Source of the DNA: Phycisphaerae bacterium | GTDB taxonomy: Bacteria; Planctomycetota; Phycisphaerae; UBA1845; PWPN01 | Direction of reading: 5' to 3' | Length of the DNA: 64,000 nt | NCBI GenBank assembly: GCA_012729395.1 | Contig: JAAYDF010000161.1 | Location: 3,319 to 67,318, forward strand | Part shown: piece by piece, positions 27,232-58,118 of the stretch | Layout: the number at the start of each line of letters is the position of its first letter | Position numbering within the stretch: position 1 is the first letter of the stretch | The notes under the pieces: generated by a model | Seen by the model: the letters and a program-made list of their open reading frames with translations, nothing else | Databases searched by the model: none | Told to the model about the DNA's origin: nothing | Made by a program: the position numbers and the translations under genes

Positions 27232-27444
27232 CAGTCGATCCACTTCCAACGCCCAACGCCGCCAGGCCACCGAGTCCACTCCGGCGCCGGTAGCCGGTGT
27301 CCGCAGTGTAGGCCCCGACGCCTTGGCGTCAACGCAAGCGCGTCGCAACCGGGTAACCGTTCACGGGAGCCAGACCGGAATTGGATAGGGTGTAACTCGC
27401 TGGCCGCCTGGCTCCCGGGGCACAACAGCGAATGCTCAAGGCCT

Positions 27445-27556
27445 AATGACCAATCAATGACCAAGCCCGAAGCCAGAACGCCAACCGCGAGCGGGGACGT
27501 TAGTCATGGGTCATTCGGACTTCATGGGTCATTGGGGCTTCGCCATGGGTCATTTC
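27445..27556. repeat. Empty pair of inverted GAATGACC-type oligo-repeat arrays (homologous to the flanks of the 4HB gene at 37595..38008)
   Basis: The left array ctaatgaccaatcaatgaccaagcccgaagccagaacgccaaccg is about 85 percent identical to 37522..37567. The right array contains tcatgggtcattcggacttcatgggtcattggggcttcgccatgggtcatttc and shares atgggtcattcggacttc with 38032..38049. Only about 13 nt separate the two arrays here. Confidence 0.7.
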
Positions 27557-27775
27557 GCCTGCGGATCGCGAGTTACGCCCAAACCATATCGCTCAGCCAA
27601 CGCGCAAGCCTCCGAACAGCCACAATCCGCACCTTGAGCGGACCGGATTGAGGCGGTATGCTGCGGCCATGTCGCTTGCGGGCGGCCCACGCATAAGGAG
27701 GCGTCCGCATTCAACGGCTTGGATAAGTCGGATTTGCCATTGTTTCGACACGCCGCGCGTGAAGGAGTCGCTCAA

Positions 27776-35689: not shown

Positions 35690-36177
35690 TTATTCGCCTG
35701 CGAATCGGCGGCGGTGCTCGGCCTCGAGCTGCCCCCAGAACGCGGCCGCGCGACGATCCTGCTGATCCCGCTGGCGAGTGTGTTCGCTGAGGTATCGCTG
35801 ACCGCGGACCGGCGAGTTCTGCAGACTATCCGCCCACGCGAGAACTTGGCGGGATGCGGATTCGGCGAGGGATTTCAGATCTGAGATTTGAGACTGCAGA
35901 TGCACGAAGTAGGGCAGCCGTTCAGTCAACAGCAGCATGGAGCGCACCTCGCCGGCCGAGCCGCGGGCGATGTAGAGACAAGTGAGCAGTTCTTGCGTTG
36001 TGCCGCGTTCAAAACCCTCCGCGATGTTGTTCCCGACCGAGATTGCCGCCCGCTGAATCTGGCTGCGCAAATCACCTTTGCCCCGAAGCTGCGGTCGTCG
36101 GTCAGCCTGAATACCCCCTCAGCCAACTGCATGGCCGTTTGCCAGACCGGCAGATCCTCGAATCGCTCGTAAGTCAT
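35690..36177 (-). pseudogene. Four-helix-bundle protein (23S rRNA IVS protein / Avd-like family), apparently frameshifted
   Basis: The N-terminal part, MTYERFEDLPVWQTAMQLAEGVFRLTDD.. (frame of 36177), and the remainder, ..DLRSQIQRAAISVGNNIAEGFERGTTQELLTCLYIARGSAGEV.. (frame of 36070), are both family-typical but lie in different frames. One extra G around 36074..36079 (aaaggt to aagggt) would restore a single ORF. This is either a true pseudogene or a sequencing indel. Confidence 0.65.
35871..35902. repeat. Short oligo-repeat array (gatttcagat / ctgagatt / ctgcagat), inverted relative to 36203..36335
   Basis: gatttcagatctgagatttgagactgcagatg is the reverse-complement flavour of the aatctcagatc/atctgaaatc/aatctgcaatc units found upstream of the 4HB gene. 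It lies within the 3' part of the 4HB reading frame (..LQSQISDLKS..). Confidence 0.6.
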
Positions 36178-36202
36178 GCGCGACTCCCGAATCCCAAACC
36201 TG

Positions 36203-36335
36203 TAATCTCAGATCCGAAATCTCAGATCTGAAATCTGCAATCCCAACTCTGCCGCTTCGAATCTGCAATCTCAGATCTCCAACGCCCCATCTGAAATCTG
36301 CAATTTCGAATCTGCGATCTCCAATCTGCCACCTC
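36203..36335. repeat. Degenerate oligo-repeat array (aatctcagatc, atctgaaatc, aatctgcaatc units)
   Basis: taatctcagatccgaaatctcagatctgaaatctgcaatcc...gaatctgcaatctcagatctcc...atctgaaatctgcaatttcgaatctgcgatctccaatctgcc. There is no regular spacing, so it is not CRISPR-like. Spurious ORFs translate it as ..EISDLRLQ... Confidence 0.75.
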
Positions 36336-36427
36336 AGACCCCCACTCGCAGACACACACCTCACAGCGCAATACGGCCATTACTCTGCAAGATGCTGCAA
36401 ATCCATCATCCCCACAACCAAGACCCA

Positions 36428-37483
36428 TCACTCCCGCCACCCGTGGGCGTCGCGGACGGCGAGCATGGCGGCCAGGATGCTGTTCCAGGTCTGCGGCCGG
36501 TGCATGACCTCATTGGAGAACATGCAGCCGTCCCAGCAGATGTGGCGAATCTTGCGGGTGGGTTGGCCGGCGTCATCACGGAGCCAGTAGCCGGCCTCGC
36601 GCACAATGTCCAGCTTGCCGTTGGGATCGCCGGGAAGGCAGTGACGGCCGGTCTTGTCGTGCGAGCCGCTGCCCTTGACCGTGGCATCGTTCTGGGCGAC
36701 GTGGAAGTCGATGGTCCACGGGCGCAGCGCGGCGGTAAGCTGCCGGTAGGCGGCCTCGAAGGTCTGCGGAGAATCCCATCCAAAACCCTCGGGCAGAATG
36801 CGGTCCTCGGGAGCGTTATAGCCCATCGTATAGAGCAGCGTGTGGGCCATATCCGCCTGGAAGCCGAGCGTCTTGGGCCGGTCGACCATCTCGAGGAGCT
36901 GCACCATCCGCCGCCATGAGTGCATGCCGCCCCAGCAGATCTCGCCCTCGGCGGCCAGCCGCTCGCCACACTGCTCAGCCATGTCGCAGGCCTCGCGGAA
37001 AGTGGCCGCGATCTTCTTCTGGTTGCCCTCGGGATCCTTGTACCAGTCCTCGACGCCGCAGGCCGAGTCGATCCGCACGATGCCGTATGGCCGCACACCC
37101 AGTTTCCGCAGGGCCGCGGCGATGCGGCAGCCTTTGCGGACCTGCTCGACGAACTGCTTGCGTTCGCTTTCGCCGCCCATGGCCGACCCGCCGCCCGTCG
37201 GTGGCCAGACCGGAGCCACGACCGAGCCCACCACGAGACCCTTGGCCCGGACCTTGTCCGCCAGCCGTTTGAGCCCGTCGTCGTCGATGTCGATACTGAC
37301 GTGCGGGTCGAAGAGGAACAGGTCGATCCCCTCGAACTTCACCCCATCCACCTCGGCAGCGACGGTCAGATCCAGCATGGTGTCCAGATCGATCGGCGGC
37401 TCGGAGTCCGGCCCCTTGCCGACCAAGCCCGGCCAGGCGGCATTGTGGAGTTTCGGCCAGTTGTTTTGATGTGTCGCAGTCAC
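36428..37483 (-). CDS. Sugar phosphate isomerase/epimerase (xylose isomerase-like TIM barrel)
   Basis: Track ORF 36428..37564. Its first 27 codons translate the repeat array. GTG 37483 has GGGAGGA 7 nt upstream ([24 protein letters not shown]..). TIM-barrel family pattern ..[10 protein letters not shown].., ..RIDSA.., ..[15 protein letters not shown]... Confidence 0.8.
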
Positions 37484-37500
37484 GGACGATTCCTCCCTAT

Positions 37501-37567
37501 GGGAATGACCAATGTCGAAACCCGAATGACCAAGCAATGACCAAGCTCGAATGCCGAATGCCAACCG
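37501..37567. repeat. GAATGACC-type oligo-repeat array (left flank of the 4HB cassette)
   Basis: gggaatgaccaatgtcgaaacccgaatgaccaagcaatgaccaagctcgaatgccgaatgccaaccg. It contains aatgaccaa three times and gaatgcc twice, and is homologous to 27445..27487. Confidence 0.8.
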
Positions 37568-37594
37568 AAAAGCGGCATGCTCCGATTTCCTCGA

Positions 37595-38008
37595 TCATGG
37601 ATCCTGCGCTGTATTGGAGCGCGCCTTGCGGCTCCGGTGAATCGCCCCGAAGATCAAGTTGCGCTCCTGCGCTTCGCGCCACAGGGTGCGCGCCTCCTCC
37701 TTGGATGTCGGAACGGCAACGGCGATCATCCGGAGCCAGTGCTTGCTCTCTTTCGCCTCGCGCTTGCACACACTGATCCGATACCGAAACTCCTTCCCGG
37801 AACCGGCCTCGTCCGCCTCACAGTAGTTTGAGCCCACGCTGGTACCCGCCCGAACAAGCTGGCGAGTCAGTGGGTCCGTCACCGCATTTGCGGGCAACTT
37901 CCTCGCGAAGGAGATGACCGCTTCGCCAAAACGTGCAGTGCGCTCATCCAAGTCAAATCGCGGCCTGGAAGCCTTGCCGTCCTCATCCGTGTCGCGAGGG
38001 TCGCTCAT
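37595..38008 (-). CDS. Four-helix-bundle protein (23S rRNA IVS protein / Avd-like family, PF05635-type)
   Basis: 137 aa. ..FDLDERTARFGEAVISFARKLP..DPLTRQLVRAGTSVGSNYCEADEAGSGKEFRYRISVCKREAKESKHWLRMI.. matches the family pattern. It lies in an operon spacer, flanked by inverted oligo-repeat arrays. Confidence 0.85.
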   Translation of the reverse strand: MSDPRDTDEDGKASRPRFDLDERTARFGEAVISFARKLPANAVTDPLTRQLVRAGTSVGSNYCEADEAGSGKEFRYRISVCKREAKESKHWLRMIAVAVPTSKEEARTLWREAQERNLIFGAIHRSRKARSNTAQDP

Positions 38009-38013
38009 TTGCG

Positions 38014-38065
38014 TTTCGGCATTCGTCGTCTATGGGTCATTCGGACTTCGCCATTCGTCATTCAC
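38014..38065. repeat. GGTCATTC-type oligo-repeat array (right flank of the 4HB cassette, inverted relative to 37501..37567)
   Basis: tttcggcattcgtcgtctatgggtcattcggacttcgccattcgtcattcac. The units ggcattc, ggtcattc, gccattc and gtcattc are reverse complements of the left-flank units. It overlaps the stop codon of the 38062..39315 gene. Confidence 0.8.
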
Positions 38066-39315
38066 TTCTTCCCGTCGCACACCTTCGGCACGTTCGGGTG
38101 CGTGTCGGGGCCGAAGTAGCGCAGGCTGACCAGCGGCTCGCTGCCGGTATTCTCGATCTCGATGCCCGCGGCGGCGGCCTCGGCGGTGATGAACACCTCG
38201 TCCTCGGTCAGATCGCCGAAGCGAATCATCGCAGGCGTCTGCAACGGCAGCTTGCCGATTCGGCCCTTGCCCTGGACGGTAATCCAGCCGCTGGCGCCCG
38301 GATCCTTGAGCACACACTTGGCCCCCGGCTCGACGGTCAGCTCCTTGGCGCTGAACAACTGCTGACCATCAATGTGCCCGTAGACGATCCACTTGTCCGT
38401 GTAGCCCTTGCCGCTGGCCTTCTCGTCCACGATGGGCACAAGCTGGTTGTGCTCGACGAAATGCGTATCGACGTTCTTGTCCCAATCGAGTTGCTCGATG
38501 ATGAAGTCCAGGTCGCGGTGCTTGTCCTTGGGTACGTCCTTGACCAGCAGATCCCAGGGGACGTACCTGCCCTCGACGATGTTCTGGTACATGCCAAACA
38601 CGTCGCTGCCCCACTGCGGCTCGTAGGTGCACAAAGAGCCCGGCGCGTGCAGCACGCCCGCCGGGATTAACCACCCCGTCCCCCGCTTGAGTCGGTACGC
38701 CCGTGACAGGTCGAGAATGCCGTTGTCGCCCTTGTTCCAGTTATCGAGGCACCGCCGCAACTGAGCCTTCGTCGTACCCGGTTCGAGGCCCATGAACGTG
38801 TAGGCGAAGTTGTTGTCCACGTTGTTCATCTGCGGGGAAAAGTAGTACGCCTCGGGCTTGCCTTCCTGCCCGGTCAGTTTGGCGTGCTCCGGCCGCTGGT
38901 GCATGTGATGCGGGATGGGCCCCATGTTGTCGAAGAACTTCGAGTAGACCGGCCAGCGTTTGTACTTGTCGAACATCGCCTTGCCGATCAGCTTGGCCCC
39001 TGCCTCGGCGACGGCGTCCTTGAGCAGGAAGCACTTGTCCTCGAAGACCACGTAGCTAAGGCCCTCTTCCGGCTCACGGTTGTCGTTCATCGCCTCGGTC
39101 GTACTCGCGAACCAGCGCTCGTCGATACCACCACGGTCGGCGCCGAGAGCGTAGTAGTCCTGGGGAGCAAGCTTGAGCCGGCGCCCGGGATGCAGAAAAC
39201 TGCGGGGCACCCAGTTCGGCGCCAATCGCAGCAAGCCGCCGCCGGAGTTCAACGCGCTGTTCACCAAGGCCGAAAGATTCTTGGCTACTGCCGTGCATGT
39301 TTTGGGTTTGAGCAT
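38062..39315 (-). CDS. Cupin-fold sugar isomerase-like protein (class I mannose-6-phosphate isomerase-like), putative
   Basis: 417 aa. The His-rich metal-site-like ..GPIPHHMHQRPEH.. and ..GWLIPAGVLHAPGS.. resemble PMI-type cupins. The CDS call is solid; the function call is tentative. Confidence 0.7.
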   Translation of the reverse strand: MLKPKTCTAVAKNLSALVNSALNSGGGLLRLAPNWVPRSFLHPGRRLKLAPQDYYALGADRGGIDERWFASTTEAMNDNREPEEGLSYVVFEDKCFLLKDAVAEAGAKLIGKAMFDKYKRWPVYSKFFDNMGPIPHHMHQRPEHAKLTGQEGKPEAYYFSPQMNNVDNNFAYTFMGLEPGTTKAQLRRCLDNWNKGDNGILDLSRAYRLKRGTGWLIPAGVLHAPGSLCTYEPQWGSDVFGMYQNIVEGRYVPWDLLVKDVPKDKHRDLDFIIEQLDWDKNVDTHFVEHNQLVPIVDEKASGKGYTDKWIVYGHIDGQQLFSAKELTVEPGAKCVLKDPGASGWITVQGKGRIGKLPLQTPAMIRFGDLTEDEVFITAEAAAAGIEIENTGSEPLVSLRYFGPDTHPNVPKVCDGKK

Positions 39316-42789: not shown

Positions 42790-42885
42790 CCAAAGGTGTC
42801 AGGAACCTTTATCGAGCGATGCGGCCTGCCGCTCGACGAACTGCGTTCTTGCGTCGCCCGAAAAAGGTTCCTGACACCTTTTTGG
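42790..42885. repeat. Inverted-repeat element, copy C (AAAGGTGTCAGGAACCTTT subtype)
   Basis: Perfect 19-bp arms aaaggtgtcaggaaccttt (42792..42810) and aaaggttcctgacaccttt (42863..42881) with a 52-nt loop. It lies between the convergent 3' ends of the ThuA and GH51 genes. Confidence 0.9.
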
Positions 42886-47836: not shown

Positions 47837-47958
47837 ATCGAAACCACAGATAAACACTGATGAAGGAATGCGATATCGATCATAGAACTTCCTGATTCCT
47901 CTTTGTGCCGTGTTTGACGCCGATTCCTTTCTTCATCCGTGTTCATCTGTGGTTTGAT
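47837..47958. repeat. AT-richer long inverted repeat (hairpin element) between convergent genes
   Basis: The cores aaaccacagataaacactgatgaag (47841..47865) and cttcatccgtgttcatctgtggttt (47931..47955) are complementary at 23/25 positions. The 65-nt loop is visibly AT-richer than its surroundings. It lies 13 nt after the pdxA stop. Confidence 0.8.
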
Positions 47959-57857: not shown

Positions 57858-57883
57858 GGCAACCTCCACGCTTCTTCCCGGCA

Positions 57884-58006
57884 GAAAATGGTGTCAGGAT
57901 GATTTTTCGCTGAGTATAACCTTGTTCTGGATTTGCGTCCCTGCGCCCCCCAAGAATCAGCCTTCCTTTGCCTGCCCCGCAAAAATCATCCTGACACCTT
58001 TTTTCG
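57884..58006. repeat. Inverted-repeat element, copy D
   Basis: Perfect 18-bp arms ggtgtcaggatgattttt (57890..57907) and aaaaatcatcctgacacc (57981..57998) with a 73-nt loop. It lies between the ldh start and the stop of the 58119..61196 gene. Confidence 0.85.
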
Positions 58007-58118
58007 CCCAGAACCTCATGACAGCATGGGCGAACGAACACGGGCGGCTGGGGACTTGCGACCTCAGCCGCCCGTGAGGTATGCATCCATTTACAATCGC
58101 GGACCGCGCAATCCCGGC

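Follow-up and report, generated by a model that had tools for sequence, protein, structure and literature searches.

The closest described relatives of the element reported here are the intervening sequences (IVSs) of 23S rRNA that carry an open reading frame (ORF). They occur in Leptospira, Coxiella burnetii, and other bacteria, and hold an S23p/PF05635 ORF in the loop of a stem formed by terminal repeats, with tandem heptamers 5′ of the start codon. The ORF is in the sense of the host transcript and depends on it, and the elements are ~0.43–0.76 kb in size with no mobility gene of their own (PMC4990558). In the Coxiella IVS, the S23p ORF sits in the loop of a 28-bp stem of terminal inverted repeats, three to four tandem GACAGAT heptamers precede its start codon, RNase III cuts in the stem, and the origin and mobility of the element are unexplained (PMC4990558). 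We analyzed a stretch of 64,000 nucleotides from a Phycisphaerae bacterium (contig JAAYDF010000161.1 of assembly GCA_012729395.1, positions 3,319 to 67,318; hereafter the window), and find in it a cassette of the same anatomy, a gene for a four-helix-bundle (4HB) protein between two inverted heptamer arrays (37503..38063, ~0.56 kb). The host differs: a 23S rRNA helix for the IVS, the spacer of an mRNA operon just after a stop codon for the window cassette. Because it has no rRNA location, the cassette is likened to a 23S rRNA IVS and not classed as one. With moderate confidence, we read it as a promoter-less 4HB cassette of the intervening-sequence type that rides on operon transcripts.

Heptamer repeats are also known outside rRNA. 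The STRR (short tandemly repeated repetitive) heptamers of cyanobacteria were reportedly described by Mazel et al. in 1990. In many bacterial genomes, no other class of long simple-sequence repeat is as abundant as the heptamers (PMC4679880, PMC4692102). Other families are GGGAATC in Xanthomonas and GGGGA(C/T)T in Nostoc (Rehm et al. 2015, PMC4692102), and TAACTGA in Beggiatoaceae, cyanobacteria, and Bacteroidetes (MacGregor 2015, PMC4679880). A Xanthomonas genome contains ~180 GGGAATC repeats, with 70–75 convergent pairs (PMC4692102). Like the arrays of the window, these are period-7 arrays in transcribed spacers, frequently near start or stop codons and in many cases as convergent pairs, but they were published as G-quadruplex or regulatory motifs (PMC4692102, PMC4679880). 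The terms “S23”, “intervening sequence”, and “four helix” occur in the text of neither paper, and “accB” and “XCC0516” do not occur in Rehm et al. 2015 (PMC4692102). In the searchable literature, which leaves most subscription journals out of reach, we found no report of 4HB genes associated with flanking heptamer arrays other than in rRNA. The initial annotation of the window, made from the sequence alone, called the genomic context undescribed; this agrees with the literature search, but the anatomy itself is that of the ORF-bearing 23S IVS.

The window cassette and its protein

The 137-aa ORF recognized in the initial annotation is present and fills the spacer between two host genes on the same strand, a gene labeled “cupin” upstream and one for a xylose-isomerase-like TIM barrel downstream (coordinates in Table 1). 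The two inverted arrays described around it are also there. Each arm is 58 nt long, the arms are 71% complementary, and the pair is the longest inverted repeat of the whole window (with at most 900 nt between arms); local alignment places the arm boundaries to within a few nucleotides only. The repeat units, earlier given as 7–9-mers, are heptamers: the autocorrelation of the arms at lag 7 is 0.51–0.53, compared with 0.21 in coding sequence. The word ATGACCAA has five plus-strand copies in the window, all within the two left arrays (27446, 27457, 37505, 37526, and 37537). The stop codon of the “cupin” gene (38062–38064) lies within the first unit of the 5′ arm, and the outer end of the 3′ arm is 5 nt from the ribosome-binding site of the TIM-barrel gene (GGGAGGAA, 37490–37497). 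The arms pair around the ORF in both the minimum-free-energy and the centroid folds of the transcribed strand, and the RNA duplex of the two arms has an energy of −59.5 kcal/mol (−25.2 ± 4.4 for shuffles, z = −7.9). No sigma-70-like promoter or intrinsic terminator was found in 37300–38300.

The protein scores 43.4 bits with the PF05635 profile (curated cut-off 33.8) and 61 bits with TIGR02436 (curated cut-off 24). Only 4HB families of Pfam and NCBIfam match it, with no HUH (Y1) transposase among the matches, and a PADLOC search on proteins returned no match. A profile of its subfamily matches PDB entry 2RLD with E = 4e-12. The AlphaFold2 monomer model, built with 23 homologs, is a four-helix bundle with a predicted local distance difference test (pLDDT) of 88 and predicted helices at residues 20–37, 44–66, 71–98, and 100–134. 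The model thus agrees with the earlier assignment to the family of Avd and the 23S IVS proteins. Its best structural matches in Foldseek are the S23p-type structures 2RLD and 2GSC; the Avd structures 4DWL and 8UB7 rank lower, with query-normalised TM-scores of 0.55–0.60. The crystal structures 2RLD and 2GSC have five chains each, and XCC0516 (2GSC) is a toroidal homopentamer (PMC4990558). The window subfamily is under strong purifying selection (median dN/dS 0.087 over 74 pairs, with dS saturated), whereas the Coxiella ORF is apparently decaying and untranslated.

The 5′ arm itself encodes the N-terminal residues of the subfamily (MTND..., MTNQ..., MSKSECRKNDE...), and disorder is predicted at the N-terminus (pLDDT <50 at residues 1–3 and 5–14). 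Such arm-encoded N-termini probably account for odd “MTNDE”-like peptides in the annotation of planctomycete proteins.

Avd, the accessory protein of diversity-generating retroelements (DGRs), binds RNA and a reverse transcriptase, and has the same four-helix-bundle fold as the window protein. A DGR remnant, in which an Avd gene has outlived its reverse transcriptase and its pair of template and variable repeats (TR/VR), is nevertheless scarcely credible as an account of this locus. Several metagenome assemblies contain the identical locus, L001 among them, and no reverse-transcriptase family is present in the precomputed Pfam hits of genes called within ±10 kb of L001. There is no TR/VR-like repeat in the window region searched: from 27 to 48 kb, direct repeats reach 40 nt or more only where the cassette arms match a gene-less hairpin. 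Rfam matched no family anywhere in the 64-kb window, and there is no rRNA. These searches agree with the initial annotation, which had noted no reverse transcriptase, TR/VR pair, or rRNA nearby. In sequence and structure, the protein also resembles Avd less than it does the S23p proteins from outside DGRs (2RLD, 2GSC), and the cassette recurs free of DGR parts in all contexts examined. The missing parts and this recurrence contradict a DGR origin.

Arms and gene as one unit across host operons

We scanned metagenomes with the subfamily profile and obtained 80 further loci, 71 of which have full flanks and were analyzed. The 71 elements are one subfamily, and some share descent. To score the arms, we reverse-complemented the downstream flank and took its best local alignment with the upstream flank; as controls we used shuffled flanks, and also segments with equal spacing from the same contigs. 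This strict score was adopted because RNAduplex energies on 130-nt flanks are uninformative, with GC-rich coding controls folding nearly as well (median −63.8 vs −57.5). The median score of the flanks is 21, compared with 7.5 in both controls (n = 71), and 87% of the elements exceed the 95th percentile of the controls; the arms are no ordinary spacer DNA. Each of the nine low scorers keeps one arm, or two arms with an unmatched unit type. The arms of an element match each other better than they match the arms of other elements (median 21 vs 11, p = 1e-16). Period 7 is the best lag in 54 of 63 5′ arms and in 52 of 63 3′ arms, and the usual arm has 5–8 units.

Inverted arrays flank all 4HB genes found in planctomycete loci. 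The unit type differs between kinds of protein: AATGAC/AATGTC-type units go with the window subfamily, GAAAGCG units with a copy of 31% protein identity, and CCCTAAC-type units with classical S23p-type 4HB genes. Covariation of the arms is clearest between subfamilies (CTAAT/ATTAG vs CCAAT/ATTGG; GAATGAC vs GAAAGCG vs CCCTAAC). Copies have a unit vocabulary in common, the order of the heptamers varies, and the terminal sequence is not fixed. By eye, 5′ arms have stop codons in all frames or are purine-rich in about eight of ten unit families, a tendency only, which fails for GGGAATC and GAAAGCG.

Some arms are expanded. About 25 tandem heptamers lie downstream of a 4HB gene in L105 (2530–2700), and ~270 nt of AGGTGAC/AGGGAAC units lie between cas6 and a 4HB gene on a cyanobacterial plasmid (L173, 1153–1420). 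From these two cases, the arrays appear to grow by slippage.

The abundance of heptamers in bacterial genomes (PMC4679880, PMC4692102) raises the question of coincidence, an old small gene that merely sits in a repeat-rich spacer among common intergenic repeats. The same spacer also collects Uma2, DUF559, and HicB genes in other genomes. We consider coincidence very unlikely, as it is contradicted by four kinds of result. The first is the 87% association, and the second is the fixed layout of the arrays. In 1.29 Mb examined, 39 strict array pairs surround a 4HB gene, and in every one of them the AATGNC array is upstream and the GNCATT array downstream. The same layout is found in all seven 4HB-enclosing pairs of the window's unit type in 0.92 Mb of planctomycete DNA picked irrespective of 4HB genes, which also has three to four gene-less pairs. 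The others are co-inheritance of arms and gene across unrelated hosts, and recurrence in four phyla with different units (both below).

Among ~70 elements, tblastx distinguishes at least 42 host gene families upstream and 44 downstream. For elements with non-homologous host genes on both sides, arm similarity grows with protein identity: between <55% and >85% identity, it goes from 9 (background) to 30 for the 5′ arms and from 9.5 to 20 for the 3′ arms. An alignment of seven elements from non-homologous hosts shows that homology ends exactly at the outer arm ends. One copy with 77% identity to the window protein occupies another operon (unknown gene, then PfkB), and long words are common to the arms of the two elements. 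The arms and the ORF are inherited and relocated together as one unit. The discrete cassette proposed from the sequence is thereby borne out; recurring in so many host contexts, it resembles a self-contained hitch-hiker. The elements are ~491 nt long (5th–95th percentile 452–565). With 9,185 cluster representatives (50% identity) that match the subfamily profile, the wider family is sizeable.

The position of the cassette relative to its host genes is regular. By heuristic ORF calls, the 5′ arm starts a median of 2 nt past the stop codon of a same-strand upstream ORF, and neighbors are co-oriented with the 4HB gene in 57 of 60 cases upstream and 54 of 64 downstream. About a third of elements have the upstream stop codon inside the arm, and the first in-frame ATG is within the 5′ arm in 56 of 70. 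The cassette is discrete and is found in dozens of unrelated operons, directly after the host stop codon and on the same strand. This position and the negative promoter and terminator search fit the earlier suggestion that the module hitch-hikes on operon transcription.

The operon of the window can be compared with its orthologs. Relatives of the upstream host gene (66–80% identity) are present in 80 species-level genomes, almost all of them Planctomycetota. The TIM-barrel gene is co-linear in 62 of the 80, and the gap between the two genes is <300 nt in 48 of these 62. A 4HB gene occupies this spacer in one other genome only (L011), and seven genomes have a 4HB gene in the next spacer, between the TIM-barrel gene and a Gfo/Idh/MocA oxidoreductase gene (GFO). 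The patchy distribution of 4HB genes among conserved operons identifies the 4HB gene as an insertion. A metagenome relative, L167, has both 4HB genes of the window at the same two positions; its arms are unlike those of the window in sequence, yet complementary to each other.

Other long “cupin”–TIM spacers contain Uma2, DUF559, HicB-like, and other small genes of no assigned family. In L012, L016, L025, L026, L007, and L167, the contents are variously a Uma2-family endonuclease, DUF559, a HicB-like antitoxin, and a zinc-ribbon membrane protein. This spacer is a landing zone for small selfish-looking genes. A 182-aa ORF in the L023 spacer was considered as IS200-like and was dropped, having no Pfam support.

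Gene-less hairpins related to the cassette also exist. The window has one at 27.4 kb that is homologous to both arms, with matches of 57 nt (27431–27487 and 37511–37567) and 43 nt (27512–27554 and 38020–38062), each at 79%. The non-repeat word GCCAACCG is common to this hairpin and the filled cassette. One arm of the hairpin fits the filled copy better than any of 70 arms of other elements (29, background maximum 22), and the second arm, with a score of 21, ties the background maximum, in line with the homology first noted between these arrays. Further gene-less hairpins of the window's unit type are found in operon spacers of L061 and L139. The gene-less pair of L030 still has ~20 codons from the start and ~10 from the end of the 4HB gene, and adjoins a full copy with an identical 5′ arm sequence; at least some gene-less hairpins are therefore internal-deletion derivatives. 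The proposal of filled and empty states holds insofar as a homologous gene-less hairpin exists in the same genome, but at least sometimes the “empty” state is a deletion derivative and not an unoccupied site. The 27.4-kb hairpin may be a derivative or a precursor of the filled cassette.

In L030 (11214–12520), the deletion derivative and the full cassette flank an insert of ~600 nt with two small ORFs that are toxin–antitoxin-like by eye. The arrangement suggests that the cassette was duplicated around a later insertion.

Internal-deletion derivatives are also a property of MITEs (miniature inverted-repeat transposable elements) and other non-autonomous elements with terminal inverted repeats (TIRs), which resemble the cassette in their inverted termini, small size, and intergenic sites. 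The arms could accordingly be the TIRs of a MITE-like transposon with cargo, its transposase encoded elsewhere, with RNA pairing incidental. Discrete ends and many insertion contexts agree with such a DNA-level element, as does the lack of a G:U bias in the arms (below). We nonetheless regard it as a rather unlikely account. No target-site duplication is detectable: the longest direct word shared by the 20 nt beyond each arm is 3.92, compared with 3.86 in mismatched controls (n = 71; arm ends are fuzzy and the test is weak). The arms are variable heptamer arrays whose order differs between copies, and seem to lack the conserved sequence of transposon termini. The orientation and position of the element are fixed to its host genes, and the strict stop-codon position and co-orientation are unexpected from transposition alone, though selection could yield them. 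No transposase-like gene is called within ±10 kb of L001.

Other lineages, a proposed mechanism, and a possible role of the protein

The same design is present in other phyla, for which the evidence is nine loci with seven independent elements, chosen by availability. On cyanobacterial plasmids, all three classical-type 4HB genes found sit between inverted heptamer arrays, with the units TAGGGAG in Nostoc edaphicum, AGGTGAC in Anabaena sp. 90, and TTAGCTG in Calothrix PCC 7716. The Anabaena cassette (pANA02) lies between cas6 and cas4. The XCC0516 ortholog is between accB and accC in Xanthomonas campestris and Dyella, flanked by GGGAATC arrays that begin 7 nt past the accB stop codon and end at the accC ATG; these arrays belong to the published Xanthomonas repeat family. 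A gut metagenome protein 98% identical to BT_0352 (2RLD), on Bacteroidaceae-type contigs, is encoded between araD and araA, and a Bacteroidaceae relative is encoded between an aminotransferase gene and a DAHP-synthase gene. Both Bacteroidaceae elements have AATTGAC arrays of 31 nt that are 94–97% complementary.

These features suggest how the intervening-sequence-type cassette of the window might work. The cassette would be transcribed within the host operon mRNA, where by analogy with the ORF-bearing 23S IVS the arms may pair into a stem of 40–60 bp with the ORF looped out. RNase III, the excision of IVSs by which is demonstrated, would cut the stem of the cassette in the same manner. Cleavage, or the stem alone, could shield the host cistrons on either side from the insert. 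As the start codon of the 4HB gene is inside the 5′ arm, beside the host stop codon, we propose translational coupling: synthesis of the 4HB protein would require that terminating ribosomes first open the stem. Candidate routes to new sites are recombination between arrays of the same unit type and a trans-acting enzyme.

Several observations weigh against this account. Co-transcription, the RNA stem, RNase III processing, and coupled translation are steps that we infer, and the orientation and distance statistics come from ORF calls that are crude. Within a tight clade, own arms match only modestly better than relatives' arms (19 vs 15.5, p = 0.005), and an element's best-fitting arm is its own in 1 of 20 cases; strong element-by-element compensatory evolution is therefore not claimed. 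Mismatches in the arms, read on the sense strand, have no excess of G:U-compatible pairs (94, against 107 A:C), so complementarity may be kept at the DNA level rather than by selection on RNA. Template switching within quasi-palindromes is a DNA-level process that could keep arms matched. While the planctomycete subfamily has ~95% upstream co-orientation, the cassettes of Nostoc edaphicum pNe_5 (L172, between nrdB/nrdA-like genes) and Calothrix PCC 7716 (L174, between HlyD-like and ABC transporter genes) are antisense to the flanking genes, which in each case look like parts of a single operon, and co-transcription therefore cannot be universal. Nor are arms universal in the 4HB family, since the one locus from a scan of viral contigs for the classical 4HB type, an IMG/VR contig (L171), has no flanking inverted array at its 4HB gene (1501–1866).

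The protein may have a more active part. A 4HB pentamer could bind its own heptamer arrays, as RNA or DNA, and act either in autoregulation, like TRAP with its triplet repeats, or in the genome-wide spread and upkeep of heptamer hairpins, as in the system of repetitive extragenic palindromes (REPs), REPINs, and RAYT; gene-less hairpins would then be dependants of the 4HB protein. This seems doubtful to us, though there are points of agreement. The heptamer unit varies in type from one 4HB subfamily to another and follows protein identity, and arms of mostly 5–8 units stand beside solved homologs with five chains and the toroidal homopentamer of XCC0516. The structural relative Avd binds RNA and a reverse transcriptase. 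In both the REP/REPIN–RAYT system and the cassette, a single gene is flanked by inverted copies of a short repeat, with gene-less hairpins elsewhere in the genome, and the number of Xanthomonas GGGAATC repeats and convergent pairs given above (PMC4692102) resembles the ratio of REPINs to a RAYT gene. RAYT, however, is an HUH transposase, while the 4HB protein has no recognizable catalytic domain, and the repeats are tandem heptamers and not a single palindrome. Binding is purely hypothetical, and the correlation of protein and arms is explained equally by simple co-inheritance. The planctomycetes also have no large dependent population, with seven filled and three to four gene-less pairs in the 0.92 Mb above.

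In its widest and quite speculative form, this idea would make stand-alone 4HB proteins and inverted heptamer arrays one widespread protein-repeat system. The ring might bind about five heptamers of its own arms as RNA, and so control both 4HB translation and host-transcript processing; it may also seed or maintain gene-less hairpins in genomes, rRNA, and other structured RNAs. If so, the 23S IVS, the cyanobacterial STRR, the Xanthomonas GGGAATC repeats, and thousands of 4HB genes would be one kind of transcript-dwelling element.

PF05635 genes are very common; two members have crystal structures, and none outside DGRs has an assigned function. If the genes belong to self-contained cassettes of operon spacers, guilt-by-association readings would be wrong, for example for the 4HB genes inside cas loci that have been taken as functionally associated with those loci (PMC3936711). 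The ORF-bearing rRNA IVS, unexplained since 1993, would then be one habitat of a much broader element, and some unexplained intergenic heptamer repeat families are offered a concrete origin. BT_0352 (araD/araA) and XCC0516 (accB/accC) are genetically tractable, structurally characterised cases.

Feature coordinates and further repeats of the window

Table 1. Features of the cassette, its host genes, and related repeats in the window (positions counted from the first nucleotide of the window).
Feature	Position	Strand	Remarks
Upstream host gene (“cupin” of the initial annotation)	38062..39315	−	417 aa; no Pfam match
5′ arm	38006..38063	−	Heptamer array, GAATGAC-type units; “cupin” stop codon at outer end, 4HB ATG (38006–38008) at inner end
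4HB gene	37595..38008	−	137 aa; PF05635/TIGR02436
Inner 3′ segment, 4HB stop codon to 3′ arm	37561..37594	−	GCCAACCG word and adjacent bases common to gene-less 27.4-kb copy
3′ arm	37503..37560	−	Reverse-complement heptamer array, GTCATTC-type units on transcribed strand
Downstream host gene, xylose-isomerase-like TIM barrel	36428..37483	−	GTG start at 37483
Heptamer array upstream of second 4HB gene	36190..36340	−	Period 7/14
Second 4HB gene, classical S23p type	35690..36177	−	TIM–GFO spacer; 1-nt frameshift near 36075
Gene-less hairpin homologous to both arms	27431..27560	− (sense by homology to filled copy only)	Divergent intergenic region

The second 4HB gene of the window and the heptamer array upstream of it are absent from the initial annotation. 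Each of the four metagenome copies that span this region has the frameshift of the gene; the ortholog L167 has it intact. The upstream array is complementary to 35869–35901, which lies inside the last helix of its own gene and not in the 3′ flank (19 nt at 100%; 33 nt at 79%).

The window also contains an unrelated hairpin family of three copies (1227–1302, 42792–42881, and 57875–58013), with arms like AAAGGTGTCAGGA(A/T)... of 28–33 nt that are 85–90% complementary. It looks like a repeat of the REP/MITE type. An isolated inverted repeat of 28 nt is found at 47841–47955 (AAACCACAGATAAACACTGATGAAGGAA), its arms 89% complementary and separated by 59 nt.

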